DNA of 64,000 nucleotides from contig QQNE01000008.1 in NCBI GenBank assembly GCA_003402735.1, forward strand, positions 6,859-70,858. Reading direction: 5' to 3'. Position numbers and translations under genes: made by a program. The notes below the pieces were generated by a model. It was not told where the DNA came from and made no database searches. It was given only the letters and a program-made list of their open reading frames with translations. This document shows, piece by piece, positions 17,277-56,406 of this stretch; within the stretch, counting starts at the first letter, position 1, and every line of letters begins with the position of its first letter. Source of the stretch: Verrucomicrobiota bacterium. GTDB lineage: Bacteria; Verrucomicrobiota; Verrucomicrobiia; Verrucomicrobiales; DEV007.

Positions 17277-17288
17277 TCGATTCCCCGC

Positions 17289-37078: not shown

Positions 37079-38791
37079 TCAACGGAAAATCACATCGATC
37101 CCCATGGCGCTCTCCCGGACGAATTCGGGAATCCAGCCAGGTCGCCGCCGCTTCACCAACCGATAGAACAGGGAGAGCAGGTGAAGGACGAAAACGCGGT
37201 CCAAAATGCGATAGCCGGGCCGGGTCCGGAACAAGTTCTTGAGGAGCCAGCGGGAGAACCGGCCCGGATCCTCAAATCGGCGGAAGCTCACGCTGATCCG
37301 GTAGCGAGGCCGGTGCGTGTATTTCTTGCGGTAAGCCGCCTTGGCTCGCTGGATGCGGCGCCGGATCTCGTCGTTGTCCGGCCCCATGAAGAATTCCCGC
37401 GCCAAGGCGAGAATCTCAAAGGTGTCCCGCATGAAGTGGATGTCTTCCATCGGTAATCCGCACCGCTGGACCAACTCTTCCATCCGCTCCAGCTTGCGCA
37501 GGGCTTGCCGGGCCGTGCGGACCGCCGCCTGCCGATCCCGTGCAAAGTGACCCAACAGTTTGCGAATCGACTGATGCACAAAGATGGTGTGCCAGTAAAC
37601 CTCCACCAACGGCGGGATCCGGATCCTTCGAAAATAGATTTTCTCCCGGGCGTAATCCTCGAAGTAGAGCAGCTCTTTGACCACCTCTTCGGACAACCGC
37701 AGCAGCTCAAGCACCGCCTCCACATCCCTCAAGCCCATGAACCGGGCACACTCCTGCACAGCCACCTCGACCGACTCCCGATGGGCAAAAATCCGGAGAC
37801 TGACAAACGCGTTGATCTCCGTCCAGACCGCGTGTTCGTCGATGTAGGCCAGGCGTCGGAACGGCACCCACCCACCTGTCTGGCACCACACAGAAAAACC
37901 TACCAAGTTCCCCGCCTCACGCAGTTCCGCCGCGTAGCGCTCATAATCATGGCCAACAAATGAGGGAAACTCACCGCTCCCCTCGTATTCCCGCCGGGCC
38001 TGCAACTCGATCAGGGTCTTGCGACCCGTCCCGAAAAAATTCCGGTTCAGGGGCAAATGCCGGAAAAAATCCGACTCCCCGTATTTCATCGAAAGGACCA
38101 AGGCATCGCTCCGAATCCCCTTGAGCGCGCGCGCCAGGGTGCGGCGATGCCAGAGAAGGTCCCCCACGCTGTAGGCCCCCACCGTCCAGGTGCGAAAGAT
38201 CAGGGTCTTTCCGGCGGATTCAAAGACCGGCAGGATCTCTCGAAGCAGGCACCGGACATCGGCGGCGGTGCGAATCACCAGCTCACTCCGGAAATCCCCC
38301 TTCACGTCGAGCCCATCACTTTCCCCGATGCGCAGGATCAATCCCTCCACCTCCGGGAAGGTGCGGAAACCGCGCTCCACCAATTCCCGCAGAAACGCGC
38401 TGGCATCTTCCGCCCCGGTGCCCAGGCGCATCCGCATTTCCGGCGTGTAGGAGAGCACGTCCTGGGTCAAAAAAATCTTGAGCCCCGCCTCGCGCAGAAT
38501 GGCGAAAAGAACTCGGTATTCCTCCTGAAAAACGGCAATGCGGTCGCGGATTTCCGGGGCGTGATCGTGGTCCACCAGATGAATCAAGTCGTCAAGCGAG
38601 ACCGCGTTGTAACCGACGGCGGCGACGCGCTGCGCAAAGAGCTTCATGTCCTCCCGGATCCGGTCCCACTGGACCCGGCGTCTCGGCCCTGCGCTGGCCA
38701 AATGCTCGAACGGAATCTTCGACCAGTTGATCCGGACCAACGGATAGTCCCGAAAAAACGGACCGATGGCATCAATGAGGCGGATCTCCAT
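37079..38791 (-). CDS. Conserved-looking hypothetical protein, possibly a (beta/alpha)8 glycosidase-like fold
   Basis: Track ORF trimmed to ATG 38791 (MEIRLIDAIGPFFRDYPLVRINWSKIPFEHL..). It is 570 aa with coding-like composition throughout. I cannot place the family and the fold guess is weak. Confidence 0.55.
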   Translation of the reverse strand: MEIRLIDAIGPFFRDYPLVRINWSKIPFEHLASAGPRRRVQWDRIREDMKLFAQRVAAVGYNAVSLDDLIHLVDHDHAPEIRDRIAVFQEEYRVLFAILREAGLKIFLTQDVLSYTPEMRMRLGTGAEDASAFLRELVERGFRTFPEVEGLILRIGESDGLDVKGDFRSELVIRTAADVRCLLREILPVFESAGKTLIFRTWTVGAYSVGDLLWHRRTLARALKGIRSDALVLSMKYGESDFFRHLPLNRNFFGTGRKTLIELQARREYEGSGEFPSFVGHDYERYAAELREAGNLVGFSVWCQTGGWVPFRRLAYIDEHAVWTEINAFVSLRIFAHRESVEVAVQECARFMGLRDVEAVLELLRLSEEVVKELLYFEDYAREKIYFRRIRIPPLVEVYWHTIFVHQSIRKLLGHFARDRQAAVRTARQALRKLERMEELVQRCGLPMEDIHFMRDTFEILALAREFFMGPDNDEIRRRIQRAKAAYRKKYTHRPRYRISVSFRRFEDPGRFSRWLLKNLFRTRPGYRILDRVFVLHLLSLFYRLVKRRRPGWIPEFVRESAMGIDVIFR

Positions 38792-38885
38792 GTTCTGAGG
38801 CGTCGCCACGCTACCGCACGGAGCCATGCAGGCAAACGGAACCTCCCGCTTGCAAGTGACGGACGCCATCTTATCTGTCCCGCCG

Positions 38886-40175: not shown

Positions 40176-40225
40176 TTCCAGGAAGACTGGGATTTCGGGG
40201 CTTGCGGCGGAGGAAATGGGAGACG

Positions 40226-40576
<351 letters not shown>

Positions 40577-40589
40577 AGAGAAATTCATG

Positions 40590-41117
40590 TCAAATTGAGC
40601 TCTTGGGATCATAGGCCAGCCGAACCTGCGATGCGTCGTAGACGATTTTGAGGTGCCGCACGGCATACTGCAGATCTTGATCGCTCATGTGTCCGGTGCT
40701 GAAAAACTGACCAGCGAAGGGTCCCTTGGAGACCACCACCCCTTCCCGCAGCAACAACGCGGTGGCCTCGGCCCCGCCCAGCGAATCGGGAAGCACGTGT
40801 TCTTCCCCGACGGCGGCCAGGGAGGAGGAGATCGATGCGATCGCCTGCGCATTGCGCTGCGAGGCGGACTTGGACGCACTCTCGCGGACGCCGTTGATCG
40901 CCGGCATTCCGATGGTCACCATGATGCCGGTGATCGCCACCATCACCAGAATTTCCTCAAGGGAAAAACTGGCCAGCGACCTTTTCCGGACAAGCTGCCT
41001 CCTCCCCTTTCCCGAACCTCGGGAGGAGAAACTCGTTTGTCCTGTTGGGGACGGCACGTTCACGGGCGTTTCAGGAGAAATTGCCGGGGTTGATGATTCG
41101 CGGTGAAGGAACTCCAA
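40590..41117 (-). CDS. Pseudopilin-like protein with a prepilin-type N-terminal methylation motif and an unusually long leader (start uncertain)
   Basis: 175-aa ORF from TTG 41117, with in-frame GTGs at 41063 and 41057. The motif is ..RKRSLAS|FSLEEILVMVAITGIMVTIG, with Phe+1, Glu+5 and a hydrophobic helix. A small globular part follows. Confidence 0.6.
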   Translation of the reverse strand: MEFLHRESSTPAISPETPVNVPSPTGQTSFSSRGSGKGRRQLVRKRSLASFSLEEILVMVAITGIMVTIGMPAINGVRESASKSASQRNAQAIASISSSLAAVGEEHVLPDSLGGAEATALLLREGVVVSKGPFAGQFFSTGHMSDQDLQYAVRHLKIVYDASQVRLAYDPKSSI

Positions 41118-41343: not shown

Positions 41344-44300
41344 ATGTCCCCTCTCCCTCCAGTCACACCCTTCTTCCTGACCCTCGCCCGAGCGGTCCGG
41401 CGGATCGGAATCTTGGCGGGCGTCTTGGTCGGCCATCTCCCTGGGGCCGAAGAGATGCCGGTGCGGATCGCCTTCACAACGCTCACGGCGCAGCAGGGTC
41501 TTGCGGAAGGGCCTCTGCTGAACATCATCCAGGACAAGCAGGGACGCATCGTGTTTGCCCAGAGGTATGGCTTGGCCCGGTTTGACGGGTTTGCGCTGCG
41601 TCCGATCCTGGATGTTCGGCAGTTGGGGTCGGAGGGAGCACACCGTTCCCTCCACGCCTTCGCCGAAGATGCCAACGGAGAGGGTTACTGGATCGGGACA
41701 GACGCCGGCCTGGTTCACCACTCCCCGGCGTCCGGTCCCTCGGCGTTCTTCCAGAATGATCCCCAGCAAATCCTTTCGGTCCCGCCGGGGACGGTCACCG
41801 CGATTCTCCGCGATGGCAACAGCGCCCTCTGGATCGGGACCGAGTCGGGATTGTGTCGGTTTGAGCTGGGCTCGAAACTTTTTGCCCCCGTGCAGGTGGA
41901 ACCGCTGAAACGGGAAATCATTCAATGCCTGGCTCAAGCTCCGGGCACCGTGGCCTCCCTATGGGTCGGCACCCGGGGCAGCGGGCTCTTCGGTCTTCTG
42001 CCGGACGGGCGCTGGGTGGATGTTTGGCACCGCCCCGCCGATGTGACCTCCATCTGCCCGGGAAGCGATCCCAAGACCGGGGAAAAGCTTCTTTGGGTCG
42101 GCACAAGGGGTGGAGGTCTGTTCCGGTGCAACGGGTCCGGCGAGCCGATCCGGCACTACCTGCCCCGGAACAGCCAGGGGATGCCAAGCCGGGACGTGAT
42201 TTCCCTGCTGGCAGACAGCGAGCATTTCCTCTGGGTGGGGACTCCGACCGGGATTTTGCGGTTGGATCCGGCGAGCGAAACCTGGCTCTCCTACGGGCCC
42301 GAAAACGGGTCCGGCGAAGGAATTGGCAGCGGAGCCCCCGGGACGATTTTCGAGGACCGTCGCAAGACTCTCTGGATCGGCACGGACGAGGGGCAAGTCA
42401 GCTACCACCGGTTGAACCTGTTCCGGTTCCCCCATCACCACGCCGATGTCCGTCCGGGGTGCAGGCTCAGCGACAATTCGGTTTGGGGCATGGCGGAAGG
42501 GAGTGCGGGGAAAGTCTGGATCGCCACGGAAAACGGGCTGACCCGGTTTGATCCGCAGGCGAAGGTGTTCGAGTCCTGGACGCACCAGGCGGGAGACTCG
42601 GGAAGCCTGCCGGACGCCCGACTGTCCTGCGTGAACGAGGACCGGAAAGGACGGGTCTGGGTGGGAACGGAGGGGAGTGGTTTGGCCCGACTGGACCTCG
42701 GGAAAGGACATTTCAAGCGCTTTGGTCCGAATCCCCGGGACCCGTGGAGCCTGCCGGGGAACGCGATCTCGGCGATTCTGGAGGACCGGGAGGGCCGGGT
42801 CTGGATCAGCGTGGCTGGCGCAGGCGTGGTCCGGTTTGAAGAGGAAGGGGAACGCTTTGTTCGGCTGGGCCCGAAGGAACAGGGGCCGCGTTTCGTGAGC
42901 CAGCTGGTCGAAGATCGCCAAGGCCGGATCTGGGCCGGTTGCTCGAGCGGACTTTGGCGTTTGGACCCAACCGAAAACCGGATGATCCATTATCGGGACC
43001 TCCCCAACACCGGGGACCGCCTCCCTGGGGAACACGTTTTCGCCCTGGCAAGCCGCCCGGACGGCTCGCTCTGGATCGGGACCCAGGGAGGCGCGCTGAC
43101 GCTCTTCAATCCGGAGACGGGGGCCATGAAGTTTTTCCAACAAGCTCTCCTGAGCCGCACGGCCAACGAGATCTGCGCCCTTCTGGCGGATGACCGCGAC
43201 AATCTCTGGATCTCGACCGAGTCGGGCCTGGCCATTTTCCGTTCCAAGGACAAATTGTTTCGCCCGTTGAGCCTTCAGGATGGCGTGCAGACGACCCGGT
43301 TCCATGCAGGATCGGCCCTCCAGCTTCGCGACGGAACGCTCCTCTTCGGCGGGCCGGATGGGGTTGACCAGATCGATCCCCGGCGGCTTCCCGACTTTCC
43401 CGAGTCGGCTCGGCCGCTGCTCACGGGACTGGAATACGACGGGCAGATGGTGATGCCCTCGGCCAAGGGAATCTTGCCGCGGCCCATGCCAGCCATGGGA
43501 AACCTCCCCTTGCGGATGCCGTCCGACCGCAAAATGCGTTTTGCGTTGCATTTCGGAACGCTGGATTACTCCAGCCTCAATCAATACCGGTTCGAATACC
43601 GCCTGGACGGGGTGGACGATTCCTGGCAGAAGGCGGGAAGCGAACGCACTGCGCTCTACCGGAGCCTCTCCCCCGGTCGCTATTTCTTCAACGTGCGGGC
43701 CTCCCGAGACGGCGTGCACTGGCAGGAACTCTCCTACCCTCTCGGCATTTGGGTCGATCCGCCCTGGCACCGCACCAAGTGGGCCATCGCGACCTTCATT
43801 TTGCTCGGAGTGGGCCTGATCTGCACCGCCGCTTCCGTCTATTTCCGAATCCGTGAGACGCGCGAGCGAATCCGCCGGGAGCACCTGGAGAACGAGCGGA
43901 ACCGGGCGGAGGCGGCCCTGGCCCGTCAAGTGCAGCACGCCATGCTGCTGGAGCGGACCAGTGCGGAATTCCGCCGCAGCCTCGACAGCTCCCACGTCTT
44001 TCAGTCCGCCCTGCGTCGGCTGGGCGAGCACTTCAAGATCCGGCGCTGCTTTCTGGCGGCCATCACCGAGGGACAGGAAGACCTCGATATCCTGGCCCAG
44101 TTCGAGTCGCCGGACTTGGCCCCGCTTCGCTTTGAGAAACTCTCGAGCAAGCACCCGCTCGTGGCCCGCCTCATGAAGGCCGACGGCGCGGTCAACCTTC
44201 TGGCGGAGCCCCTTCCGGCCCCGGGGATGCCCCGCTCCAACGGTGAGGCCGACCCTTGCCTCTGGGGAATCCGCACCGCTTACCTGGAAAAGTGCAACGG

Positions 44301-45666
44301 CATCATCGTCCTGGACCGGGACAACTCGGCCGCGGGATGGCACAGGGAGGAACTGCGCTTGCTGGAATCCCTTGCGGCGCAATTGGGCATTGCCGTGGCC
44401 CAGTTCCTCCTGAGCCAGAAAGAGGCGAAGCAGGCCCTCGAACTCCAGGAGGCGAGGGTCGCCGCAGACGTCGCCAACCAGGCCAAGAGCGATTTCCTCG
44501 CGAAGATGACCCACGAGCTGCGCACCCCGCTCAACTCCATCATCGGCTTCTCCGAGGTCATGAAAACGGAACCGGGCCTCAATGATGCCCACCTGAAACA
44601 TCTCAGCATCATCACCAGCAGCGGCGAGCATCTCCTCGGGGTCATCAACGATATCCTGGAAGTCTCCAAGATCGAGGAAGGCAAGGCTGAACTCGTCCCG
44701 CTCCGTTTCGACCTCAAGGAACTGCTTCAATCCGTCCACGCCATCATGTCGACCGCGTCCGACAAGAAGGGCGTCAAACTGGATCTGCTGCTCGAGGGCG
44801 AGCTCCCCCAACGCGTCGAGACCGACAAACAAAAGCTGCGGCAAATCCTCATCAACCTCCTCAGCAACGCCATCAAGTTCACCTCCAAGGGGTCCGTTTC
44901 CCTGCGGGTCCAGGCCAAGTCCGCCCCGAACACAGCTTCCGCAACCGCCCCTCACCCCGTCCAGTTGACCATCGAAGTCACCGACACCGGGGAGGGAATC
45001 GCGGAAGGCGAATTGCAAAAGCTCTTCGGCAGATTCGTCCAAACCCAAAGCGGCAAAAACTCCCTGCAGGGCAGCGGACTGGGCCTCTCCATCGTCCAGG
45101 GGTTCACCCGGTTGCTCGGAGGCAGCATCAGCGTGCGCAGCCAGCTCGGCGTCGGCACCACCTTCTCTCTGGAACTCCCCATCCTCGCCATCCCGCAGAC
45201 CCAGGTCGTCGATCTGATCCGCCCCATCGCCCGCGATGTGGTGGGACTGGCCCCCGGTCACCGCCCCGTGCGGGTCCTGGTCGTGGAGGACAACGAAATG
45301 AACCGCCTCCTCATGCGCAAGTTCCTCGTAAAGGCCGGGTTCGAAATGGCGGAAGCGGAGAACGGCAAGATCGCGGTGGAGACTTGGCGGGACGTCCGTC
45401 CCGACATCATTTTCATGGACGAAAGCATGCCGGTGATGTGCGGACTGGAAGCCACCCGAGCCATCACGGAAATGGCGGGAGAGGACAGACCGCCCATCGT
45501 TTCCCTCACCGCCTTCGCCCTCGAGGAGCAGCGAAGATCAGCTCTCGAAGCCGGTTGCGTCGATTTCCTGGCCAAGCCCTTCAAGCGTGACGATTTGTTC
45601 GAAATCATCCGCAAACATTGCCAGGTCACCTACCAATACCGGGACCAAATCGCCCAGGCAGCCTGA
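41344..45666 (+). CDS. Hybrid sensor histidine kinase: periplasmic two-component-regulator propeller repeats plus Y_Y_Y, then TM, GAF, HisKA, HATPase and receiver
   Basis: 1440 aa with an N-terminal anchor. Many ..LWVGT/LWIGT.. propeller blades are followed by [24 protein letters not shown] (Y_Y_Y). The TM span is [26 protein letters not shown]-like region follows. The H-box is [21 protein letters not shown] and the G-boxes are DTGEGI and GSGLGLSIV. The receiver reads [21 protein letters not shown]. Confidence 0.9.
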
Positions 45667-45702
45667 TGCCGGAGCGGTCCGGAAAAAAAGACGCCCAAGG
45701 CG

Positions 45703-45729
45703 TTGACGAGCTAGGGAATTTTCTATAAT
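45703..45729 (+). promoter_or_regulatory. Sigma70-like promoter candidate (TTGACG-N15-TATAAT) upstream of the giant gene
   Basis: TTGACG at 45703..45708 and TATAAT at 45724..45729. The 15-nt spacer is shorter than optimal. By direct count, 45711..45760 contains 12 G+C out of 50. Confidence 0.3.
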
Positions 45730-45762
45730 TTCAATATTTATAGTAATTTTGGAAGCTTTCCC

Positions 45763-48700
45763 GTGACCGTCCGTTCCCGCCACAGCGCCTTTTCTCTGCT
45801 CGAGATCCTCCTCGCGGTCGCGATCATCGGCACCCTCGCGGCTGTGGCCGTGGTGCGGCACCACAATTCCATCGAGAACGTCCGTGTCGCCAAGCTCGAG
45901 TCGGACATCGCCACCATCAATTCAGCGATCAAGACCTATGCCGCCAACGGCGGTTCCCTGGCCGGCATCGTCACGCCCCAGGCGGTTCTCGACAAAATGA
46001 AGACGTCGTTGTCGACGGAAGAGGACGCCCGTTTTGTCGGGATCGGCGGCTCCATGATCGATGCGCGTCTCACCGCGGTTTCTTCGGATGACCTGCCCGA
46101 CGGAAAGCCCCGGGCCATCTGGAACAGCGTGGCTTCGCGCTTTGACTTGGCCACGAACGGGAGCGGGATTGCCCAATTCGTTTTGGATGCCACCGCGGGC
46201 CGGGCGGAGTATGGCACGGAGTCCCGTGAGGATGGCGTCACCTTCTCCTACAACACAAGCAATGGATGGGTCTGGAATTACAACGATGCGGCACCGCTTC
46301 CCCGTCCCACCCCCTCGCTGGTTTCCGTGAGCGGTCTTCCGTCTGGGACCAGCAACACGGTCGACCCCACGCCCTGGAGCGATCCCTTGCTCTCCAATCT
46401 TCTGCCCCCCACATTCTCGTTGGACGGGGGCAGTTACCGCCCGTCGCGTTTCCCGTTGGAGGTCCAGCTGATCAACCCGAACCCCGCCGCCTCGAGCACG
46501 ATCCTGGTTTCCGTGGGCGGTTCCAACTTTGTGCCCTACACCGCGCCGCTCAAGCTGGTGGCCGACACGACGGTCACGGCCTTTGCGACCGGGGATCCGT
46601 CCCTCTGGTTCCCCAGCAGCACCGTGGGCGAAACCTACCTCGTCTCCCCGCCGGAGCAGCTTGCCACGCCGGTGATTTCGCCGTCCAGTCCACAGTTCCA
46701 GTGGGACACGGCCGAGACCATCTCCGTTTCGATCTCCAACCCGAACAGTTCCGACGACTCCGCTCTGGATTACAAGATCGACGATGGCAGTTGGTCCCGC
46801 TACTCCGGGTCGTTCAGTTTGGAATTCAGCGCGAACGAGGACGGGGCTGTGATCTCCGCCCGGGTGATTCCTCTGGGCCCCGACTACACCGAAAGCCAGG
46901 TGGCCACCGTCTCGATTGCACCGGCCCCGCCGCAACAAAACCTGGTCGCTCCCGTGATCACCACGAGCCAGCCAAAGTTCATCCAGGGCTCGGTCGAGAC
47001 CATCACGGTCACCTTGGCGGACCAGAACGCTGCCGGTTCCGCTCTGGAGTATCGGCTGCAGGGTGGCAACTGGCTGACTTATGCCTCCAGTTTCAACGTC
47101 ACCCGAGCCGCTTACCCGCAAGGCGTGAAGATCGAGGCACGCTCCCGCGCCATCTCGCGAGCCTACATCAACAGCACCACCTCGAGTTTCACCGTGGAAC
47201 TCTCCACCGTGGAACTCCGCCCGCCCAACATCATCCCCACTGCGGCGAACTTCATCGTGGGAGCGGTTGAGACCGTGAACGTGACGATCACCAACCCCAA
47301 CCCCACCTCCGCCGCATCCCTCCTGGACTACAAGATCAACAACGGTGCCTGGTTGCCCTACACCACCGCCCTGTCCTTCACGCGAGCCAACTACAGCTCC
47401 GGGTTCACCATCGCCGCGCGAGCCCGATCAACGTCCGCCGGTTATACCAACAGCGTGGATTCCTCGGTCCAAATCGGTGTGACCGGGATTCCCCTCCTGC
47501 CTCCCAGCATCACTCCGAGCGCCCCCAACTTCGTGGCCGGAAATGTGGAAACCGTGACCGTCACCCTGACCAACCTGAATTCGGTCGCGTCATCGGTGTC
47601 CTACCGCCTCAACGGTGGAACGTGGCTGAACTACTCGGGCGTCTTCTCCGTGACCCGATCCACCTATCCTTCCGGAGTGCTGGTGGAGGCGCGGGTCGCC
47701 GGAACCACAACGGCTTCCGCCACCAGCGCCATCAACTCGGTCAGCATCGGCTTGGCCACGCTGCAGCTGCGGCCTCCCAGCTTGGTGCCGAGCGCGGCAA
47801 ACTTCATTGCGGGCGTCACCGACTCCATCTCCGTCTCGATCGTCGACCCGAACACGGTCGCATCGGCGGCGGAATACCGGATCGACAACGGTGCCTGGCA
47901 AGCCTACCAGGGCCCGTTCACCGTGACCCTTGCCGGCTTCCCGTCCGGACTCATGATTGAGGCCCGGGCCCGCGCCACCGCCCCCACCCATGTCGATAGC
48001 GACCTCGACACCGCCATCATCGGCCTGACCCTGGCCCAGTTGCGCCGCCCCCTCATCAGCACGTCTGCCGCCAGCCTCATGGCGGGGGCCGCGGAAAGCG
48101 TGTCCGTGAGCATCTCCAACCCCAACGCGGTCGGCTTGGGAGAGGTGGAGTATCGGCTGGATGGCGGTGCCTGGCAGACCTACGCGGCCCCGTTCACCGT
48201 GAGCCGCGCCGCTTACCCATCCGGTGCGACCATCGAGAGCCGGGTTCGGGCCCTCAGTCTCGCGCTGCTGGACAGCGATGTGAGCACCTCGATCATCAGC
48301 CTGATTCCCTGGCGGCTGCGCTCCCCGACGGTCAGCAGCGACGTGGCCGGGTTCGTCGCCGGATTCGTGGAGAGCGCAACGATCACGGTGACCGCCACGG
48401 ATGCCGCCAGCGAAGGGCTCGAATACCGCCTGAACGGCCAGAGTTGGCAGGCCTACACCGCGCCGTTTGCCGTGACCCGCACGAACTACCCGACCGGGGT
48501 CACGGTGGAAGCTCGCAGCATCTCCTCCTCACCGGCCCTTGACCCCAGCGAGATCGCCTCATTGACGATTGGCCTGAGCCCAGTGCAGTTGCAATCCCCG
48601 ATCATCATGAGAAGCGCAACCGTTTTCTCGACCTCGACCAACACGGTCACCGTCAGCTTGGTGAACCCGAATCTGTCCGGGGCGCTCATGGATTACCGCC

Positions 48701-51700
48701 TCAACAACGGGGCTTGGCAGACTTACACGGTCCCCTTCACCTTGGCTTGGACCAACTTCTCCGCCGGGGTCACGATCGATGCCCGGGCCCGCTCCATTTC
48801 GGCCGCCTTCCTCACCAGCGGCATCGCCTCGGCCTTGGTTGGAACCAGCGCCTCTGAATTGCAGTCCCCGGTCATCACGCCAACCGCTCCCAACTTTATC
48901 CAGGGATTCCAGGAATGGATTGCGATCGGCCTGAGCAATCCAAATCCCGTCGGCAGCTCGGCCTTGGATTACCGGATCAACGGAGGGGAGTGGCTGGCCT
49001 ACACCACGACGATCACCGCGACGCGAACCGCCTACCCATCGGGTCTCACCATTGAAGCCCGCGCCCGGGCCTTGAGCAGCACGTTCACCACCAGCCCGAA
49101 CGCCATTCTCGCGATCGGTCTTACGTCGGTGCTGCTCCGCTCCCCGATGATCGCCACCACGGCCCCGAGATTCATCGCCGAGAACACCGAGACCGTGACG
49201 GTGACCCTGACCAACCCCAACGCAACGGGTTCCGTGATCGACTACCGGCTCAATGGCGGTTCCTGGCTCACTTACACCTCCAGCTTTACCGGGACCTTGG
49301 CCGCCAATCCCAATGGACTGACCATCGAGGCCCGGTGCCGAGCGACCGATTCCGCCTTGGCCACCAGCACGATCGCCTCGGCCTTCGTCGGCGTGGCTCC
49401 GGTCCGCCTGCAAACGCCGTTGATCAGCCCCAGCGCCTCCAATTTCCTGGCCGGCAGCGCCGAAAGCGTGACCGTGACTTTGACCACGCCCAACACCACC
49501 GGATTCGTCCTGGAATACCGGTTGGCCAACGGCGTATGGGTCACCTACTCGACCCCCTTCGTCGTCACCCAGCAAAGCTACCAAGCCGGGGTCGTGGTGG
49601 AAGCGCGGGCCCGAGCCCTCACCGCCGCGTATGTGGACAGCAACATCGCCCTCGCCGCGATCGGCCGCACCCCGGTGCTGCTGCGACGTCCATCCATCAT
49701 CCCGAGTGCGAACAGCTTCCTGCCCGGGTCGATCGAGTCGGTCTCGGTGACCCTGACCAACCCAAACCCGGTCGGCGCGGTGCTGGAATACCGGGTCAAC
49801 AACGGAGCTTGGCTGGTTTACTCCGCACCGTTCACCGTGACCCGAACCTCCTTCCCCAACGGGGTGCCCATCGAGGCGCGGGCCCGAGCCCTGTCCAGCG
49901 CCTACATCACCAGTGAATCCTCCACCTTCACCGTGAAACTGACGCCTGTGCAGCTGATCGAACCCTCGATCCGTTCCAGCGCTTCAGACTTCATTCCCGG
50001 TTCAGTGGAAACCCTCACGGTCACCCTCGTCAATCCGAACCCGATCGGTTCGGTGATGGATTACCGCATCAACGGCGGCGGTTGGACCACCTACTCCACC
50101 GCGCTAAGCCTAAGGCGGACCAGTTATCCTACCGGTGTCTCGCTGGAGGCCCGGGCCAGGGCCACCCAGAGCGCCTATGCCACCAGCAACACCTCGACCG
50201 CCAACTTCGGCGTTGCCTTGGTCCAACTGTTGACCCCGACCATCTCCTCGAGTGATCCGGCATTCGTCGCAGGAACCACCGAAACCATCACCGTCAGCAT
50301 TTCCGACCCGAATGCCACAACAACGACGACGACGACAAATGCCGCTCCCATGGCTGCTTCCCCATTGGAAGCCAGCGTGAATGGCAACAGGTCCATGCTG
50401 CAATATCGGCTCAATGGCCGCGCGTGGGTCAACTACTCGGCCCCGTTCACCGTGACGCGGACACTCTATCCCACCGGGGTCACCGTGGAGGCGCGCGCCC
50501 TGGCGACGACCCCTGCCTATCTGACGAGCAACAACGCCCTGAGGGGCATCGGATTGACCACCCTGACCCTGCAAACCCCGACCCTGGCCTCGAATGTCCG
50601 CAATTTCAGGATCGGTTCGGCGGATTTCGCGACCGTCACCGTGACCAATCCCAATCCCTCGGGAATTTCCGCCCTGCAATACCGCATCAACAGCGGCGGT
50701 TGGCTGGCCTACACCGGCCCCGTCACCTTCGCCCGGACCGCTTATCCCTCGGGCCTCACGGTCGGTGCCCGGGCCGTCGCCGCCGCCATCTCCGGTTACG
50801 GAACCAGCCGCATCGGCACGACCACGATCGGCTTGACCCAGGTGCAACTCTTGCCCCCGAGCATCACCAGGACCCTCCCCAACTTCGTTGCCGGCTCGGG
50901 CGAAACCATCACGATCACCCTCAGCAATCGGAACCCGAGCGGCTCGGCCCTGCAATACCGTTTGGCCGGCGGTGGCTGGACGACCTATACGACCCCCTTC
51001 ACCGTGACCCGGTCCAGGTTTCCCAAGGGCGTCATCGTGGAAGCTCAGGCCCGCGCCACGATCTCCGCTTACCTGGCCAGCACCATCGCCTCGACCAACA
51101 TCGGCATCGGCACGGTGCAGCTCCAGATCCCGGTGATCACCCCCAGCGCACAGAATTTCATGGCCGGCTCCACGGAATCGATCACCGTCACGGTGAGCAA
51201 CCCCAACCCGTCCGGATCCTCCATCCTCCAATACCGCATCAACGGCACCGCCTGGCGGAACTATACGGGGGCCTTCGCGGTGAACCGAACAAGCTACCCG
51301 ACCGGGTTGAACATCGAGGCCCAGGCCCTGACCGCCTCCACCGTCTACGTGACCAGCGCGGCCGCCTCCGCCACCATCGGCTTGACCCCCGCCCGTCTCA
51401 ACCAGGCCACGATCCGCCGCAGCCCCGTGAACGTCAATTTCATGGCCGGTTCCGTGGAGACAATGACCATCAGCCTGGCCTGGCGAACCCCCAATCCGTC
51501 GGGCGTCTCCGTCAACGAGTATCGCCTCAACGGCGGATCCTGGCTCACCTACACCAGCGCCTTCAACGTCACCCGGTCCGCTTTCCCCCAAGGGGTCACC
51601 ATCGATGCCCGGTCCCGTTCCACTTCGGTGGCCTACATCGACAGCACGACCTCCACGATGACGATCGGGGTGACGCTCGTTCCGCTGCAAACGCCCATGA

Positions 51701-52431
51701 TCCGCCGCAGTTCACCCAACTTCGTGCCGAACCAGGTGGATGCCATCACCGTGACGCTCATCAATCCGAACAGCACCCTCACCTCCGCGCTGGATTACCG
51801 CATCAACGACGGGACGTGGGTTCCCTACACGGCCCCCTTCTCCCTGACCCGCGCCGTTTACCCCAACGGGTGCTCGGTCCAGGCCAGAGCGCGCGCCATC
51901 GTGGCGGGTTACGACAACAGCCCCAACAGCTCCGCCACGATCAGCCTGAAACTCAACGCCACCAAGACCACGGTGACCTTCACTTCCATGGCCTCGACCG
52001 CCGGGTATCTCAATGAGGCCTACATCTACATCGATGGAGACGCCTACTATCTCGGCAATAGCGACATGGGAGCGGGCTTCGCCGTCAACGTCGATGTCTA
52101 TCTGGAAACGGGCGTCACCAACGTCTTTGATCTCAGCATCGACACCTACATGCGCAGCGGTGGACGATTCATCTCCGGTGCGCTGCGGGGGCTCGACACC
52201 CGCACCGGATCGCTCTTCAGTCGGATCGACAGCAACGCCTCGTTCCGGGGACAATCGACGAACTCGGCCAAGATCAAGGACCTCAGCTTCCAGAGCAACC
52301 TGAACATGATCGTCGGCTACGAGGACCTGATCATCGCCAAGCAGAATCCGGACTGGGACTACGATGACTTCATGTTCCGGCTCACCTCGAGCCAGGCCTT
52401 CAACTTCACGTTCGGCGGTTACGCCCGCTGA
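45763..52431 (+). CDS. Giant (2222 aa) prepilin-type N-terminal domain protein with ~20 tandem ~92-aa Ig-like repeats and a distinct C-terminal domain
   Basis: GTG start. The N-terminus is MTVRSRHSA|FSLLEILLAVAIIGTLAAVAV, with Phe+1, Glu+5 and a hydrophobic helix. A ~200-aa unique region follows. Then come 19 clear repeats carrying the (L/M)x(Y)(R/K)(L/I)NGGxWxxY..PF.V.R..YP.G..(V/I)EARARA signature, plus one degenerate copy. The final 158-aa non-repeat domain ends ..GYEDLIIAKQNPDWDYDDFMFRL... Confidence 0.85.
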   Translation: MTVRSRHSAFSLLEILLAVAIIGTLAAVAVVRHHNSIENVRVAKLESDIATINSAIKTYAANGGSLAGIVTPQAVLDKMKTSLSTEEDARFVGIGGSMIDARLTAVSSDDLPDGKPRAIWNSVASRFDLATNGSGIAQFVLDATAGRAEYGTESREDGVTFSYNTSNGWVWNYNDAAPLPRPTPSLVSVSGLPSGTSNTVDPTPWSDPLLSNLLPPTFSLDGGSYRPSRFPLEVQLINPNPAASSTILVSVGGSNFVPYTAPLKLVADTTVTAFATGDPSLWFPSSTVGETYLVSPPEQLATPVISPSSPQFQWDTAETISVSISNPNSSDDSALDYKIDDGSWSRYSGSFSLEFSANEDGAVISARVIPLGPDYTESQVATVSIAPAPPQQNLVAPVITTSQPKFIQGSVETITVTLADQNAAGSALEYRLQGGNWLTYASSFNVTRAAYPQGVKIEARSRAISRAYINSTTSSFTVELSTVELRPPNIIPTAANFIVGAVETVNVTITNPNPTSAASLLDYKINNGAWLPYTTALSFTRANYSSGFTIAARARSTSAGYTNSVDSSVQIGVTGIPLLPPSITPSAPNFVAGNVETVTVTLTNLNSVASSVSYRLNGGTWLNYSGVFSVTRSTYPSGVLVEARVAGTTTASATSAINSVSIGLATLQLRPPSLVPSAANFIAGVTDSISVSIVDPNTVASAAEYRIDNGAWQAYQGPFTVTLAGFPSGLMIEARARATAPTHVDSDLDTAIIGLTLAQLRRPLISTSAASLMAGAAESVSVSISNPNAVGLGEVEYRLDGGAWQTYAAPFTVSRAAYPSGATIESRVRALSLALLDSDVSTSIISLIPWRLRSPTVSSDVAGFVAGFVESATITVTATDAASEGLEYRLNGQSWQAYTAPFAVTRTNYPTGVTVEARSISSSPALDPSEIASLTIGLSPVQLQSPIIMRSATVFSTSTNTVTVSLVNPNLSGALMDYRLNNGAWQTYTVPFTLAWTNFSAGVTIDARARSISAAFLTSGIASALVGTSASELQSPVITPTAPNFIQGFQEWIAIGLSNPNPVGSSALDYRINGGEWLAYTTTITATRTAYPSGLTIEARARALSSTFTTSPNAILAIGLTSVLLRSPMIATTAPRFIAENTETVTVTLTNPNATGSVIDYRLNGGSWLTYTSSFTGTLAANPNGLTIEARCRATDSALATSTIASAFVGVAPVRLQTPLISPSASNFLAGSAESVTVTLTTPNTTGFVLEYRLANGVWVTYSTPFVVTQQSYQAGVVVEARARALTAAYVDSNIALAAIGRTPVLLRRPSIIPSANSFLPGSIESVSVTLTNPNPVGAVLEYRVNNGAWLVYSAPFTVTRTSFPNGVPIEARARALSSAYITSESSTFTVKLTPVQLIEPSIRSSASDFIPGSVETLTVTLVNPNPIGSVMDYRINGGGWTTYSTALSLRRTSYPTGVSLEARARATQSAYATSNTSTANFGVALVQLLTPTISSSDPAFVAGTTETITVSISDPNATTTTTTTNAAPMAASPLEASVNGNRSMLQYRLNGRAWVNYSAPFTVTRTLYPTGVTVEARALATTPAYLTSNNALRGIGLTTLTLQTPTLASNVRNFRIGSADFATVTVTNPNPSGISALQYRINSGGWLAYTGPVTFARTAYPSGLTVGARAVAAAISGYGTSRIGTTTIGLTQVQLLPPSITRTLPNFVAGSGETITITLSNRNPSGSALQYRLAGGGWTTYTTPFTVTRSRFPKGVIVEAQARATISAYLASTIASTNIGIGTVQLQIPVITPSAQNFMAGSTESITVTVSNPNPSGSSILQYRINGTAWRNYTGAFAVNRTSYPTGLNIEAQALTASTVYVTSAAASATIGLTPARLNQATIRRSPVNVNFMAGSVETMTISLAWRTPNPSGVSVNEYRLNGGSWLTYTSAFNVTRSAFPQGVTIDARSRSTSVAYIDSTTSTMTIGVTLVPLQTPMIRRSSPNFVPNQVDAITVTLINPNSTLTSALDYRINDGTWVPYTAPFSLTRAVYPNGCSVQARARAIVAGYDNSPNSSATISLKLNATKTTVTFTSMASTAGYLNEAYIYIDGDAYYLGNSDMGAGFAVNVDVYLETGVTNVFDLSIDTYMRSGGRFISGALRGLDTRTGSLFSRIDSNASFRGQSTNSAKIKDLSFQSNLNMIVGYEDLIIAKQNPDWDYDDFMFRLTSSQAFNFTFGGYAR
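46657..51960 (+). repeat. Tandem coding repeat array, 19 units of 270-288 nt (one of 342 nt), diverged at DNA level
   Basis: Anchor Tyr codons of the YR(L/I)NGG motif are at 46771, 47050, 47329, 47602, 47875, 48151, 48424, 48694, 48970, 49243, 49516, 49789, 50062, 50404, 50680, 50956, 51232, 51520 and 51796. The array boundaries are approximate. Confidence 0.9.
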
Positions 52432-52436
52432 GGCTC

Positions 52437-55400
52437 TCAGGCCATCACCTCGCGCAAGTCATCGAGGGAGAGTCCCTGCATGAGCGGAGCGGCGTCGTCC
52501 AGGGCGGCTTCGATCACGTCCCGTTTCTTGCGCTGCAGCGCCACGATCTTTTCTTCCACGGTTCCGGCAGCGATGAGTTTGTAGGAGCTGACCGGGCGCG
52601 ACTGGCCGATCCGGTGCGCCCGGTCCGTGGCCTGGGCCTCCACGGCGGGGTTCCACCACGGATCGTAATGGATCACGGTGTCCGCCGCGGTCAGGGTCAA
52701 CCCGTAACCACCCGCCTTGAGGCTGATCAAAAAGAGGCCCGGGCCGTGGCCACCCTGGAACCGCTCCACCTGCTCCGCCCGGTCGGTGGAGGATCCGTCC
52801 AGGTAACAATACGGCGTGCCCCGTGCATCGAGCACCTGCCGCAACAGGCCCAGCATTCCGGTGAACTGGCTAAAAACCAGGGCCTTGTGGCCCCCACTCT
52901 CGCACTCTTCCAAAAGCTCGTCGAACAACTCGAGCTTCGCGGACCCCGCCTTGGCGGCGTCCTCCACCCCGAGCAGCCGCGGGTCACAGCAGACCTGGCG
53001 CAAACGCAGCAACGCCGTCAACATCGTCATCCGCGCCTGTCCCTCGCTCTTCTTTGCCAGGGCGTCGTCGATCTGCTTGCGGGACTCGCGCAGGATGGAC
53101 TCGTAAAGTTTGGCCTGGCCCGGCGTCAGTTCGCAGGTGCGGACCTGTTCGATTTTGGGCGGCAACTCCTTGGCCACGCTCTCCTTGAGGCGGCGCAACA
53201 TGACCGGCTGGATCCGCTGCCGCAACCGCTCCAAAACCGGACGCGGGGCCGCGCCACCGCTCAACGGAAGTTCATACCGCTCCCGAAACTCTTCCCGGCG
53301 CCCCAGATATCCGGGGATCAGGAACTCAAAGATGGACCAAAGCTCGCGCACGCTGTTTTCCACCGGAGTTCCACTCAAGGCCAGCCGGGCCCGGGCCCGG
53401 AGTTTGCGCGCGGCCCGGGCGCTCTGCGTGTCCGGATTCTTGATGGCCCCGGCCTCGTCCAGGATCACCGCCAGAAATTCCCGCCCGGCCAAGGCTTCCA
53501 CGTCCCGGACCAGCAAGGCGTAACTGGTGACCAGCAAATCCGCCGTCTCGATCTCCCTCTCCTCCTCCCAGCGCCGGCTCCCGTGCCAGACGTGACAGCG
53601 GCGCCCGGGAAGAAAACGCTCCGCCTCCTTCCGCCAGTTGTGCAGCAAGGAGGTGGGGGCGACGACCAAGATCTGCCCCTTTCCCTGTGTCTGCCAAAGC
53701 CATTCCGCGCCGGCCAGGGCCTGCAAGGTCTTGCCGAGCCCCATCTCGTCCGCCAACAATCCCGCCCCCGCCGGCCCGCGCCAAATCCCGGCCAACCAGC
53801 GCACCCCGTCCCGCTGATAATCCCGCAAGGTGACTTCGAGCTCCCCCAACGGCTCCAAATCGACCGGTTCCCCGTCTTCCAACTCCCCCTGAAACGCGGT
53901 GCGCAAAAATCCCGCCTGGGCGGCGCGCACCCGGAACAAACCGTCCTCCTGGACCGGCTGGGCATCGAAAATCACCTCGTCCGCCTCGGCACAGGCTTCC
54001 AGGTCCACAAACGCGCTGCGCCCGTTGGCCAACTGCACTTTGCTCTGTCCTTTGGCCAGAAGTTTCTGGATCTCCTGCCGACTGATCTCCACGCCCCCCT
54101 CGCCCGAGTAACGCAGCGCAAAGCCGAACCAGTTGGCGTCGCTTCCCCGTTGCTCCAGACGGGGCCGGATGATCTCCACCTGCCGACTCACGTGCTGGAA
54201 TCTCTCGCCAAGCTCCACCTTCCAGTGCCGCACCAACTCGGGGTAACCGCGTGCATAAAAGCGTCCCACCTCCTTCTCTCCGCGGAGGTGAAATTGCCCC
54301 GCCGCATCCGGCCCCGTGAACCCAAATTCCTCCAACCGCGCCGCCCCCAGCCGCTCCGCCCGCTGGTTGCGGGTCACAAAACTCCCGTCGTCGGCCCGGT
54401 AGGGAAATGATCCACCCGGCGGTTCCGCCCCCAGCCGAAACGTCACCGCTTCCCCATAGCCGACCGTCACGACCCCGCTCAACGCATGGAACGAGCCCTC
54501 AAAACGGGCCGAAAAAGTCGGAACCCCGGGCCGCAAGATGATCCCCTGACCCGGCTCCGACAAGAATTCGATGGAGTCGTGCCAGGCACCGAGCCCGGCC
54601 AGAAGCAACCCCGGCGGAAGGGTCACCGCCTTTCCGTCCAGAAGATCGTCATACGCAGAACCGGCCCCGGCCGGAGCGGGACGCACCGGCTCCAGAAGCG
54701 CGCGTTGGGCAAAATAAACCCACCGTCGGTTTCCCGCCCGCAACCACTGCTGCTGGTTGCCTTCCCGCACCAGCGGCGTGAGCCGGAAATCGCCGTCCGC
54801 ACCCGTCTCCAACCGGACCCGAACCCGGGCCGCCGACGTCCCCGCCACCACCAGAAGGTCTTCCCCGCGCCGCCCCGCCCCCGTATCCTGCAGCACTTCG
54901 AGCAGATCGATCGCCTGCTCCGGGTTCACCACGCAGACCGCCGGCAGTTTGCCGATTTTGGCCCGGTCGAGCCATTTCCAAACCACTTCTCCTCCCTGAG
55001 CGGCGGGCTCCACCCGCACCGGGATCCGCCCCTTCTCCCAGAGCTCGGCGAACCTGGCGTCAAACCGCACACAGACCCCGCCGCGCGTCTCCGGCCGGAC
55101 CTGTTCCCGGGCGGAGACGGAAGGAACCGGAGCAATTTTCCCTGGCACGATCCCCGCCGGAGCTACCGGGCTCCCCGCGCCCAGAATGTGCGCCAGCGCC
55201 ACCGCCGTGGAATGGGCGCAAACCTGACCGTAACGCCGGGAAAGATGACAGGGACAGAGATTGCGCAAATCCGTGCGGCTCTCGATCTCAAAACCGGCCA
55301 CCTGGGGTTTGCCCTGGGCGACGACCACCCCTTTCAAACGGCGTCCCTCCACCCGCACTTCGGCCACGCCTCCGCCCTGATGCAAGGACCGGGCCTCTTT

Positions 55401-55484
55401 GAGAACCTTCCAACCCGCGGCATCGGAGAGCCACTTTTCGGTCAGGTCAAAGGGGAGGCCGGGGGCGGGATCAGAAGAACTCAT
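52437..55484 (-). CDS. SNF2-family helicase/translocase with an N-terminal SWIM zinc finger
   Basis: 1015 aa. The SWIM motif is CPCHLSRRYGQVCAHSTA. The SNF2 ATPase motifs are LADEMGLGKT, DEAGAIKN and the helicase-C block (..LISLKAGGYGLTLTAADTVIHYDPWWNPAVEAQATDRAHRIGQ..). Confidence 0.92.
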   Translation of the reverse strand: MSSSDPAPGLPFDLTEKWLSDAAGWKVLKEARSLHQGGGVAEVRVEGRRLKGVVVAQGKPQVAGFEIESRTDLRNLCPCHLSRRYGQVCAHSTAVALAHILGAGSPVAPAGIVPGKIAPVPSVSAREQVRPETRGGVCVRFDARFAELWEKGRIPVRVEPAAQGGEVVWKWLDRAKIGKLPAVCVVNPEQAIDLLEVLQDTGAGRRGEDLLVVAGTSAARVRVRLETGADGDFRLTPLVREGNQQQWLRAGNRRWVYFAQRALLEPVRPAPAGAGSAYDDLLDGKAVTLPPGLLLAGLGAWHDSIEFLSEPGQGIILRPGVPTFSARFEGSFHALSGVVTVGYGEAVTFRLGAEPPGGSFPYRADDGSFVTRNQRAERLGAARLEEFGFTGPDAAGQFHLRGEKEVGRFYARGYPELVRHWKVELGERFQHVSRQVEIIRPRLEQRGSDANWFGFALRYSGEGGVEISRQEIQKLLAKGQSKVQLANGRSAFVDLEACAEADEVIFDAQPVQEDGLFRVRAAQAGFLRTAFQGELEDGEPVDLEPLGELEVTLRDYQRDGVRWLAGIWRGPAGAGLLADEMGLGKTLQALAGAEWLWQTQGKGQILVVAPTSLLHNWRKEAERFLPGRRCHVWHGSRRWEEEREIETADLLVTSYALLVRDVEALAGREFLAVILDEAGAIKNPDTQSARAARKLRARARLALSGTPVENSVRELWSIFEFLIPGYLGRREEFRERYELPLSGGAAPRPVLERLRQRIQPVMLRRLKESVAKELPPKIEQVRTCELTPGQAKLYESILRESRKQIDDALAKKSEGQARMTMLTALLRLRQVCCDPRLLGVEDAAKAGSAKLELFDELLEECESGGHKALVFSQFTGMLGLLRQVLDARGTPYCYLDGSSTDRAEQVERFQGGHGPGLFLISLKAGGYGLTLTAADTVIHYDPWWNPAVEAQATDRAHRIGQSRPVSSYKLIAAGTVEEKIVALQRKKRDVIEAALDDAAPLMQGLSLDDLREVMA

Positions 55485-55586
55485 GGCAGGCGGGGAACCA
55501 CAATCTCACGGGCTATGAGCCTGTTGCCAACCGCCAAACGCGAAAACCCGATTGCCAAAGTCCCCCGTTTGTGACAAGGTTAGGAA

Positions 55587-55614
55587 TTGTTGTCTATCAG
55601 CTCGCTTTTATAAT
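55587..55614 (+). promoter_or_regulatory. Promoter candidate TTGTTG-N16-TATAAT ending 9 nt before the ParA ATG (would give a leaderless or near-leaderless mRNA)
   Basis: TTGTTG at 55587..55592, TATAAT at 55609..55614 and the ATG at 55624, all read directly. Confidence 0.3.
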
Positions 55615-55623
55615 CGGTTTGCC

Positions 55624-56406
55624 ATGAAAATCGTTGCGCTATCCAACCACAAAGGAGGGGTCGGGAAAACCACGACCGCGGTCAATCTCGGGGCCTATTT
55701 GGCCCGGGCCGGACAAAAAGTTCTCGTCCTCGACCTCGATCCCCAAGCCAACGCCACCGAGACCTTGGGACTCAATCCGGAGGAACACACCAGCATTTAC
55801 GAGACCATGCTCGGTCAGGGCGACATCAGCCGTCTCCCGGTCGCCACCAACCTGGAAAATCTCCACCTGATTCCCGCCAACGCCGACCTTTCCGGCATCG
55901 AGGTGGATCTGGGAGCGGACGAGCATCGCTTGGCCAGGCTTCATGCGCCGCTGCAGAATTACAAGGCGATCGCTCCCTACGATTATCTGTTGATCGATTG
56001 CCCGCCCTCCCTCGGAGTGCTCATGACCTGCGCCCTGGCCGCGGCGGATGAAATCGTCATCCCGGTCCAGTGCGAGTATTTGAGCTTGATCGGTTTGACC
56101 AAAATGGTGGATCTCCTCAACGAGATCCGCTCCACCGGAGTCAACCCGGGAGTGGTCATCGAAGGCATCGTCCTCACCATGGCGGACGGACGCACCAACC
56201 TCACCGAAGAGGTGATCAACGAGGTGCGTCAGCAGATGAACAGCATCGCTTACGACACCGTGATTCCGCGGAACGTGAAACTTGGGGAAGCTCCGAGCCA
56301 CGGCAAAACCATCCTGGAATACGCGCCCGATTCCAAGGGAGCCGAGGCCTACGAAACCCTCTGCAACGAGTTCCTCCAGCGCCACGGAGTCGTGCTCAGC
56401 GCCTGA
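55624..56406 (+). CDS. ParA/Soj-family ATPase (no adjacent parB)
   Basis: Track ORF trimmed to ATG 55624. MKIVALSNHKGGVGKTTTAVNLG is the deviant Walker A. VLVLDLDPQANAT and YLLIDCPPSLG are also present. Confidence 0.9.
   Translation: MKIVALSNHKGGVGKTTTAVNLGAYLARAGQKVLVLDLDPQANATETLGLNPEEHTSIYETMLGQGDISRLPVATNLENLHLIPANADLSGIEVDLGADEHRLARLHAPLQNYKAIAPYDYLLIDCPPSLGVLMTCALAAADEIVIPVQCEYLSLIGLTKMVDLLNEIRSTGVNPGVVIEGIVLTMADGRTNLTEEVINEVRQQMNSIAYDTVIPRNVKLGEAPSHGKTILEYAPDSKGAEAYETLCNEFLQRHGVVLSA

Follow-up and report, generated by a model that had tools for sequence, protein, structure and literature searches.

The window analyzed here is the whole stretch of 64,000 nucleotides taken from contig QQNE01000008.1 of a Verrucomicrobiota bacterium. 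Its subject is a single gene on the forward strand (45763..52431), which encodes a protein of 2,222 amino acids (aa) that resembles a modular pilin of extreme length. The predicted architecture comprises a prepilin-type N-terminus, a head of ~165 aa, a Pro-rich linker, a degenerate immunoglobulin (Ig)-like domain, 19 repeats and a C-terminal domain of 160 aa. The first-pass annotation, made from the sequence of the window, had described this open reading frame (ORF) with the same coordinates, length and GTG start. It is present exactly so, and the NCBI entry P0001, from a Verrucomicrobia metagenome-assembled genome (MAG), is an identical protein with the same start, named 'pseudopilin PulG'. 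The gene and its parts, all on the + strand, are as follows:

45763..52431, +: whole gene, modular pilin-like protein, GTG start, 2,222 aa
45763..45789, +: leader peptide, aa 1-9 (MTVRSRHSA), with a predicted prepilin-peptidase site after Ala9 (TIGR02532 and N_methyl matches)
45790..45945, +: alpha-1 helix of the pilin module, with the hydrophobic alpha-1N FSLLEILLAVAIIGTLAAVAVV (aa 10-31) and the amphipathic alpha-1C (AlphaFold, PDB profile matches)
45946..46257, +: globular remainder of the head (aa 62-165), with two short helices ahead of four strands (AlphaFold)
46258..46404, +: Pro/Ser/Thr-rich linker, aa 166-214, ~50 residues, predicted disordered (predicted local distance difference test (pLDDT) 47-70)
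46405..46653, +: first, degenerate Ig-like domain, aa 215-297 (AlphaFold beta-sandwich, pLDDT 96-98)
46654..51957, +: array of 19 Ig-like/Fn3-like repeats of ~92 aa, aa 298-2065 (repeat hidden Markov model (HMM))
50314..50397, +: Thr-rich insertion in a loop of repeat 14, 23 aa, about aa 1518-1545, ATTTTTTTNAAPMAASPLEASVNGNRS
51949..52428, +: C-terminal DUF4114-like domain, aa 2063-2222 (sub-threshold Pfam matches, orthologue conservation)

The + strand and this frame are taken as coding because the guanine-plus-cytosine (GC) content at the third codon position (GC3) reaches 0.83 (0.52/0.55/0.83 for positions 1/2/3). Long antisense ORFs are typical of a genome of 62% GC. Those within the gene were ruled out as real genes, since both GC3 and the conservation among orthologues favor the + frame. 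The product has a mass of 234 kDa and a pI of 6.6; it is rich in Ser, Thr and Ala (together 36%), contains less than 1% Lys and has only 2 Cys.

The N-terminus consists of a basic leader of 9 residues, MTVRSRHSA, followed by FSLLEILLAVAIIGTLAAVAV, with Ala at position -1, Phe at +1, Glu at +5 and Gly at +14. The first-pass annotation had recognized in it the layout of a class III (prepilin peptidase) signal, and this is borne out by the profile matches. TIGR02532 exceeds its cut-off of 16.3 both for the full-length protein (17.8 bits) and for aa 1-215 (20.7 bits), and Pfam N_methyl, when run against the first 300 aa alone, reaches 22.7 bits, above its gathering score of 21.2. The other NCBIfam matches to aa 1-215 are to GspG, GspH, PilA, PpdD, ComGE and GspI, all of them pilin or pseudopilin families; the sole non-pilin match is a weak one to the transmembrane helix of FtsL (14.8 bits). 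A search of the PDB with a profile of aa 1-212 retrieved Geopilin (E = 3e-6), then PilA, the CFA/III pilin, GspG and PilE1, over aa 2-60. A few unrelated proteins are included among the leftover weak matches (E>0.01).

Each of the five orthologues whose N-terminus is intact (P0002, P0003, P0004, P0006 and P0008) keeps the motif (A/G)FSLLE at the same place, P0006 with the canonical Gly at -1. In the wider family that shares the head of the protein, the members with a recognizable motif have Gly at -1 in 81/137 cases and Ala in 54/137. Ala at this position is normal within the family, as the second commonest residue there. Phe at +1 is found in 108/137 and Glu at +5 in 131/137. Judged by profile and by model, the N-terminus is confirmed as pilin-like and is not a plain signal anchor. 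This similarity had been made a point to check, as had the retention of the pilin N-terminus by orthologues that differ in repeat number, which holds for five of five intact N-termini. No characterized non-pilin function turned up for the family. Those of the refuting conditions set at the outset that were examined all came out on the side of the pilin-like interpretation.

The database names of P0001 and of P0002 ('GspH family') suggest a different identity: an ordinary pseudopilin of the PulG/GspH family, acting as piston component of type II secretion with no adhesive role. Weak GspG and GspH matches over aa 9-69 agree with these names. However, TIGR01710 (GspG) reaches 22-25.7 bits against a cut-off of 88.85, over aa 9-62 only, and TIGR01708 (GspH) 18.3 bits against 80. 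Neither match extends past the shared alpha-1 helix. The class III signal peptide and this helix are common to GspG, GspH and the window protein, whereas the globular parts are unrelated in sequence. Pseudopilins usually measure 130-330 aa; the window protein is 7-17 times longer than GspG and GspH and adds an Ig-like rod of ~2,000 aa and a lectin-like end. We consider the pseudopilin role highly improbable and, going by the sequence, the names PulG and GspH are misleading for this protein.

The AlphaFold model of the head begins with a single long helix of ~50 residues (aa 12-61, pLDDT 93-97), followed by strands at aa 103-107, 117-121, 126-130 and 136-141; pLDDT is 91-98 over aa 11-150. The predicted topology of aa 12-141 is the pilin layout, namely a long helix and then a four-stranded sheet. 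No Pfam or NCBIfam model covers the globular head. Its relatives were collected by an exhaustive HMMER search with aa 1-212 as query against the representatives of clusters at 50% identity. At E<=1e-3 the search returned 3,802 cluster representatives, of which 570 remained at a limit of <=1e-10 and 211 at one of <=1e-30. Word-indexed searches found far less (1 match with the profile of aa 1-212 and 3 matches with a head-only profile).

In nearly all of the 150 matches listed, the head begins within ~60 residues of the protein N-terminus. The proteins among the matches listed range from 163 to 2,222 aa, with a median of about 590, and the longest members of the family are the window protein and its three full-length orthologues. 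Most head-family proteins hold 1-6 copies of the same Ig-like repeat, according to the repeat HMM. A Pfam scan of 74 members detected N_methyl in 41 and vWA in 13, and further modules comprise CHB_HEX_C_1, Fn3_assoc, DUF4114, cadherin-like, Big_9 and an ice-binding-like adhesive domain. By these domain contents the head is the mark of a carrier-plus-effector family that is large in Verrucomicrobiota. At one locus (L036, 609-5200) two head-family genes of 754 and 658 aa stand in tandem on one contig; the family can therefore expand locally within a genome.

The stalk opens with the degenerate domain, for which Foldseek returned Fn3 and Ig domains and an accessory domain of an Akkermansia glycosidase. 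On its own it has no Pfam or NCBIfam match, and the repeat HMM picks up its equivalent weakly (16-22 bits) in two orthologues. The first-pass annotation had counted 19 clear repeats of ~92 aa plus one degenerate copy. The same number is obtained here: the HMM finds exactly 19 copies at 100-127 bits each, and the beta-sandwich modeled at aa 215-297 accounts for the degenerate one. The anchor Tyr residues run from aa 337 to aa 2012 (nucleotides 46771 to 51796), as had been described. The spacing of 270-288 nucleotides given for them is accurate with one exception, a step of 342 nucleotides from repeat 13 to repeat 14. This longer step is explained by the Thr-rich insertion of 23 aa in repeat 14, which is seen in this genome only, is not present in the 71%-identical orthologue and could be an O-glycosylation-type tract or the result of recent slippage.

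The Ig-like nature of the repeats was likewise proposed at the outset, with a resemblance to the chitobiase-type CHB_HEX_C module. Here the fold is confirmed and the resemblance is not. The AlphaFold model of a repeat pair is all-beta with pLDDT >90, and Foldseek aligns it with tandem Fn3/Ig arrays, with the rod-like adhesins InvD (5ldy) and SiiE (2yn5) and with the phage protein Hoc. Pfam at E<=1 gave no match for four single repeats, the degenerate domain or the consensus repeat, CHB_HEX_C_1 (PF13290) and Fn3_assoc included; domains of these two families are present in two other members of the head family. In NCBIfam, the OmpL47-type model NF047446 reaches 186 bits summed over the protein against a cut-off of 40 bits. 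Single repeats score just 16-20 bits, and the match in each covers ~22 residues around the motif Y-R-L-N-G-G-x-W.

The array is evidently old, as the first-pass annotation had argued from the divergence of its copies. Protein identity from repeat to repeat averages 41% (range 22-55%), and Tandem Repeats Finder detected no long-period array in the DNA. An assembly artefact or a recent repeat expansion was excluded on the grounds that the repeats are only 22-55% identical and are positionally orthologous between species. The positional orthology extends to 19/19 repeats with the closest orthologue, P0002, and to 12/19 with the next.

Proteins with the same head and tail differ in the number of repeats between them. 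Nineteen repeats and the degenerate domain are found in P0001-P0004 (2,192-2,222 aa), 11 repeats and the degenerate domain in P0005 (1,444 aa) and P0006 (1,467 aa), and 3 repeats and the degenerate domain in P0008 (740 aa). Orthologues with 71%, 57% and 52% identity to the window protein all have the same count of 19. This fixed count and the positional orthology indicate that the array is old and that its length has been maintained. With 19 repeats kept at 52-71% identity, against 3-4 or 11-12 domains in relatives, stalk length appears to be a selected property, and the comparison points to selection on reach. Three MAG contigs with family members (L006, L013 and L017) are labeled 'Akkermansia muciniphila', and these species labels look doubtful. 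On L006 the family member is apparently P0003, the 57%-identical orthologue, with the same N-terminal sequence, and the neighboring matches are labeled Prosthecobacter or Verrucomicrobiaceae.

The separate domain that had been noted at the C-terminus (with a length of 158 aa) was recovered as aa 2063-2222 and is conserved in all orthologues. DUF4114 (PF13448) is the only Pfam family matched in 8/8 homologous C-termini, with 17.9-26.3 bits, and an acidic motif, GYED...PD[WY]DY[DN]D[FL], is invariant among them. In Myxococcus xanthus, the pilus-tip adhesins PilY1.1 and PilY1.2 begin with a DUF4114 module, which is proposed to be a Ca2+-dependent exopolysaccharide binder there and has been described as occurring in many sugar-binding proteins (PMC9109919, PMC13190605). 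By analogy, the C-terminal domain of the window protein is probably Ca2+-dependent and glycan-binding.

The link to a filament machine comes from the loci of relatives, which were scanned with one genome per GTDB species. All 35 loci obtained lie in Verrucomicrobiota and are labeled Verrucomicrobiales, Verrucomicrobiaceae or Prosthecobacter. In 27 of them a paralogue of ~510-720 aa, whose head is 34-46% identical to that of the window protein, is the immediate neighbor of a divergent secretin gene, immediately precedes an ATPase gene, or both. The longer loci continue with a gene for an N_methyl pilin-like protein of 140-152 aa and a PilC/GspF platform gene. The cluster is exemplified by locus L039 (7714-19842) and is also present in 26 other loci among L008-L038; the MAGs that contain it are labeled Verrucomicrobiaceae or Prosthecobacter. 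Its order in L039 is a secretin (- strand), a 528-aa family protein, a 354-aa ATPase of the PilT/PilU family (274 bits), five ORFs, a 152-aa N_methyl protein and a 408-aa PilC/GspF protein. The 528-aa protein matches TIGR02532 with 18 bits and ends in a choice-of-anchor K domain, and one of the five intervening ORFs has a GspH-like N-terminus. Neither a PilB-size ATPase nor a prepilin peptidase was seen in the L039 cluster stretch. The ORFs of the conserved cluster that belong to no family measure 289, 194, 198, 283, 327 and 626 aa. Judged from sequence and gene order, in this lineage of Verrucomicrobiota the carrier module is linked to the machinery of a type 4 filament, and the window gene is a dispersed paralogue.

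On these sequence grounds, the window protein is most likely an adhesin of great length that a pilus machine displays. The reading that we favor, with a confidence somewhat above even, is more specific: a low-abundance, probably tip-located modular pilin, which would carry a DUF4114-like, PilY1.1-like glycan-binding end on a stalk of ~70-80 nm. In this mechanism, a prepilin peptidase would remove the leader of 9 residues before Phe10. The hydrophobic alpha-1N would first hold the protein in the inner membrane and would then dock the pilin module of ~165 aa into a type 4 filament. The filament would be built by a secretin/PilT-like ATPase/PilC-GspF machine encoded elsewhere in the genome. What the analysis shows are the sequence features, the predicted folds, the conservation and the linkage of the family to machinery; cleavage, methylation and polymerization are inferred. 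The protein would be extracted from the inner membrane, and its Ig-like rod would pass through the secretin. Beyond the flexible Pro-rich linker, the 20 Ig-like beta-sandwiches may form a thin rod of ~70-80 nm, an estimate that assumes about 4 nm per domain for 20 domains. This rod would keep the DUF4114-like domain away from the cell for glycan binding, as an adhesin or a 'fishing line'.

Because the protein is so bulky, it would most likely be a low-abundance subunit, rare in the filament and probably at its tip. The same parts could also be arranged as a bottle-brush fibre, in which the protein is an abundant repeating subunit and each copy contributes a side arm of ~70-80 nm to a brush-like coat or matrix. 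The disordered linker of ~50 residues that parts head from stalk would allow this, as such a linker is the condition named by Raynaud et al. for incorporation into the filament body (PMC8179133). The paralogue in the cluster, itself ~510 aa, is moreover the first gene after the secretin gene. At an axial rise of ~1 nm, typical of type 4 filaments, 20 domains per subunit would however be expected to crowd severely, and the side arms would presumably have to cross the secretin alongside the filament. The separate pilin-like gene of 140-152 aa in the cluster is also the more natural major subunit. Of a location at the tip and side arms down the length of the fibre, the former is the more plausible, and we judge the brush-like fibre to be quite improbable.

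Several observations weigh against the favored reading. The window gene is solitary. Neither pilus nor type II secretion machinery is encoded in the 64-kb window, where no second pilin-like N-terminus and no GspE/PilB-type Walker motif were detected, and tblastn with six machinery proteins of the cluster gave no match in it. In three orthologous loci the surroundings of the gene, up to 10 kb away, are likewise free of pilus and type II secretion machinery. The prepilin peptidase motif (A24, GxGDxK) was found neither in the window nor in the 39 related loci. In the full-length scan, Pfam N_methyl reaches 18.8 bits and stays under its gathering score of 21.2. Foldseek with the model of aa 1-300 retrieved no pilin structure, all matches coming from the Ig-like domain at aa 215-300, and once alpha-1N is left off, the PDB holds no sequence relative of the globular head. 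For lack of such a relative, 'pilin fold' is here a statement about predicted topology. At the other end of the protein, DUF4114 remains under its gathering score of 27 in every C-terminal copy, and the AlphaFold model of this domain is poor (pLDDT 35-65). Furthermore, bacteria of the Planctomycetes-Verrucomicrobia-Chlamydiae (PVC) group encode very many proteins with prepilin-like N-termini, and we know of no such PVC protein that has been shown to polymerize.

Part of this evidence speaks for a role as anchor only. The prepilin-type N-terminus, cleaved or not, would then serve for membrane insertion and anchoring of a stalk that is tethered or released and never polymerized, in analogy to the archaeal sugar-binding proteins with class III signal peptides. 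A solitary gene unlinked to machinery and the lack of a peptidase motif in the window and the related loci both favor such a role, and a huge family with varied C-terminal modules would fit a general sorting signal. However, the conservation goes beyond a signal and spans the whole module of ~165 aa with its pilin topology, and the closest paralogous modules are encoded between a secretin gene and an ATPase gene. The Glu at +5, which in pilins matters for filament assembly and not for membrane anchoring, is kept in nearly all members, at the frequency given above. A rod of ~70-80 nm would also exceed the width of the periplasm of a diderm, so that an outer-membrane conduit would probably be needed anyway. 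Anchoring without polymerization, the main rival of the favored reading, is in our estimate unlikely, though it deserves to be taken seriously.

The favored reading, a rare modular pilin with a long stalk, can be compared with known systems. Modular pilins have been surveyed as >1,200 proteins in 264 architectures, the most extreme named example having 860 aa and 12 motif copies (PMC8179133). The window protein is about 2.6 times as long as this extreme. Modular pilins are defined by the IPR012902/N_methyl motif together with at least one extra non-pilus domain, and the window protein combines the motif with 20 Ig-like domains and a DUF4114-like domain. No structurally studied pilin is known to exceed about a quarter of its length. 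In contrast to the described modular pilins, its head is a separate sequence family without a Pfam model, its host is a diderm of the PVC group, and its gene is unlinked to pilus genes.

The PilB protein of Streptococcus sanguinis, of 461 aa, has one extra module, compared with the 20 Ig-like domains and the terminal domain in the 2,222 aa of the window protein. PilB (with a vWA domain) and PilC (with a lectin domain) of this species nevertheless share its layout: a class III signal peptide, a small pilin module, a short linker and a grafted effector (PMC8179133; PMC9934059). Their role as tip-exposed adhesins is the role predicted here. The vWA domain of PilB recurs in 13 of the 74 relatives of the window protein that were scanned. 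In S. sanguinis PilB, as in Myxococcus PilY1.3, this domain serves as the adhesive module (PMC8179133, PMC9109919). In the Myxococcus proteins PilY1.1 and PilY1.2 (DUF4114) and PilY1.3 (vWA), the pair of effectors known from the head family, DUF4114-like and vWA, is fused to a 'carrier' that displays them on a type 4 filament (PMC9109919, PMC13190605). However, PilY1 proteins are not pilins and dock onto minor pilins by a C-terminal beta-propeller, whereas the carrier in the window protein would be the N-terminal pilin module. The DUF4114 domain of PilY1.1 and PilY1.2 is N-terminal, and the effector here follows a long stalk at the C-terminus. Pfam and NCBIfam detected no PilY1 domain in the window protein.

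The minor pilin CofB of enterotoxigenic Escherichia coli, TcpB of Vibrio cholerae, GspK and ComZ of Thermus measure roughly 330-550 aa. They likewise consist of a pilin module followed by beta-rich domains, and they are located at the tip, where they prime or cap the filament (PMC8179133). These proteins have one or two extra domains and are encoded within pilus operons, which the window gene is not, and they show no sequence similarity to the window protein past alpha-1. Long tandem Ig-like rods with a terminal binding domain are, on the other hand, characteristic of adhesins of the SiiE, invasin/InvD and LapA/Bap type. Those are exported and anchored by type I or type V routes, whereas the window protein has a prepilin-type N-terminus; Pfam and NCBIfam revealed no RTX (repeats-in-toxin), autotransporter or sortase signal in it.

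Modular pilins account for the many functions that simple filaments acquire; the studied ones have one or two extra domains, and ~2,000 residues on a pilin module would stretch the concept. A subunit of 234 kDa would need to be extracted from the membrane, passed through the secretin and held on the filament. What is novel here is the extreme length, the head without a Pfam or NCBIfam model and the fixed number of stalk domains; the modular pilin is itself a known kind of protein. No new principle is involved, and the source organism is uncultured. The head marks a large unannotated family of Verrucomicrobiota with vWA and DUF4114-like effectors, the same pair as in the PilY1 tip adhesins. The MAGs that some head-family members derive from are assigned to Prosthecobacter, and this genus has cultured species. 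These cultured Prosthecobacter offer a route to ask whether the many 'prepilin-like' proteins of PVC bacteria are filament subunits.

A broader reading, which we regard as rather improbable, is that in Verrucomicrobiaceae one secretin/PilT-like ATPase/PilC machine and the carrier of ~165 aa form a general route of adhesin display for hundreds of architectures. Under this conjecture the window protein might, with as little assurance, be a length-calibrated tether of 19 domains and about 70-80 nm. It is just as speculative that a retractable filament would cast out the tether or that the tether, if polymerized, would form a brush-like coat. If general display of this kind were true, giant adhesins would have a presentation route that depends on type 4 filaments and runs alongside type I and type V secretion.

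The other features of the window that were recorded are the following:

14112-18743, +: PSCyt1/PSCyt2/PSD1 protein (1,054 aa) and then a DUF1501 protein (484 aa), a PVC-typical pair
37079-38869, -: ORF of 596 aa with coding-like GC3 and no Pfam or NCBIfam match
40202-41117: a number of small ORFs, flanked by argG and the kinase gene, that match neither Pfam nor NCBIfam
41344-45666, +: hybrid sensor kinase of 1,440 aa directly upstream of the pilin-like gene (Reg_prop beta-propeller, Y_Y_Y, GAF, HisKA/HATPase, receiver)
45667..45762, +: upstream intergenic spacer, AT-rich, 96 nucleotides (read directly from the sequence)
45703-45708 and 45724-45729, +: candidate promoter, TTGACG and TATAAT with a spacer of 15 nucleotides (sequence inspection)
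52437-55484, -: SNF2-family helicase, convergent downstream, with the stop codons 5 nucleotides apart
55552-56406, +: ParA-like ATPase, downstream of the SNF2 gene

In the spacer, GGAAG stands 8 nucleotides ahead of the GTG start. A sigma-70 promoter scan that required a spacer of 16-18 nucleotides reported none upstream of the gene, and for this reason the TTGACG/TATAAT pair is a candidate promoter at most. The genes of the window are housekeeping or PVC-typical (among them PSCyt/PSD1 with DUF1501, a sulfatase, BNR sialidase-like proteins, ArgG and ClpB), and Rfam and tRNA scans of the window were empty.

The hybrid kinase also stands upstream of the closest orthologue (L001); in L002 a glutaminase/cNMP-binding protein takes its place. 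In two further orthologous contigs the SNF2 and ParA genes recur downstream, and the kinase recurs in one. The kinase and SNF2 neighbors were set aside as parts of a functional unit with the gene, since the upstream neighbor differs among the orthologous loci. The best NCBIfam match of the SNF2 helicase is the SCO1167 helicase family; the second, the 'pilus expression-regulating Snf2 family helicase' NF053675, scores 376 bits, far under its cut-off of 1100. The PSCyt/PSD1-DUF1501 pair of the window is also found just upstream of the pilus cluster in L039.

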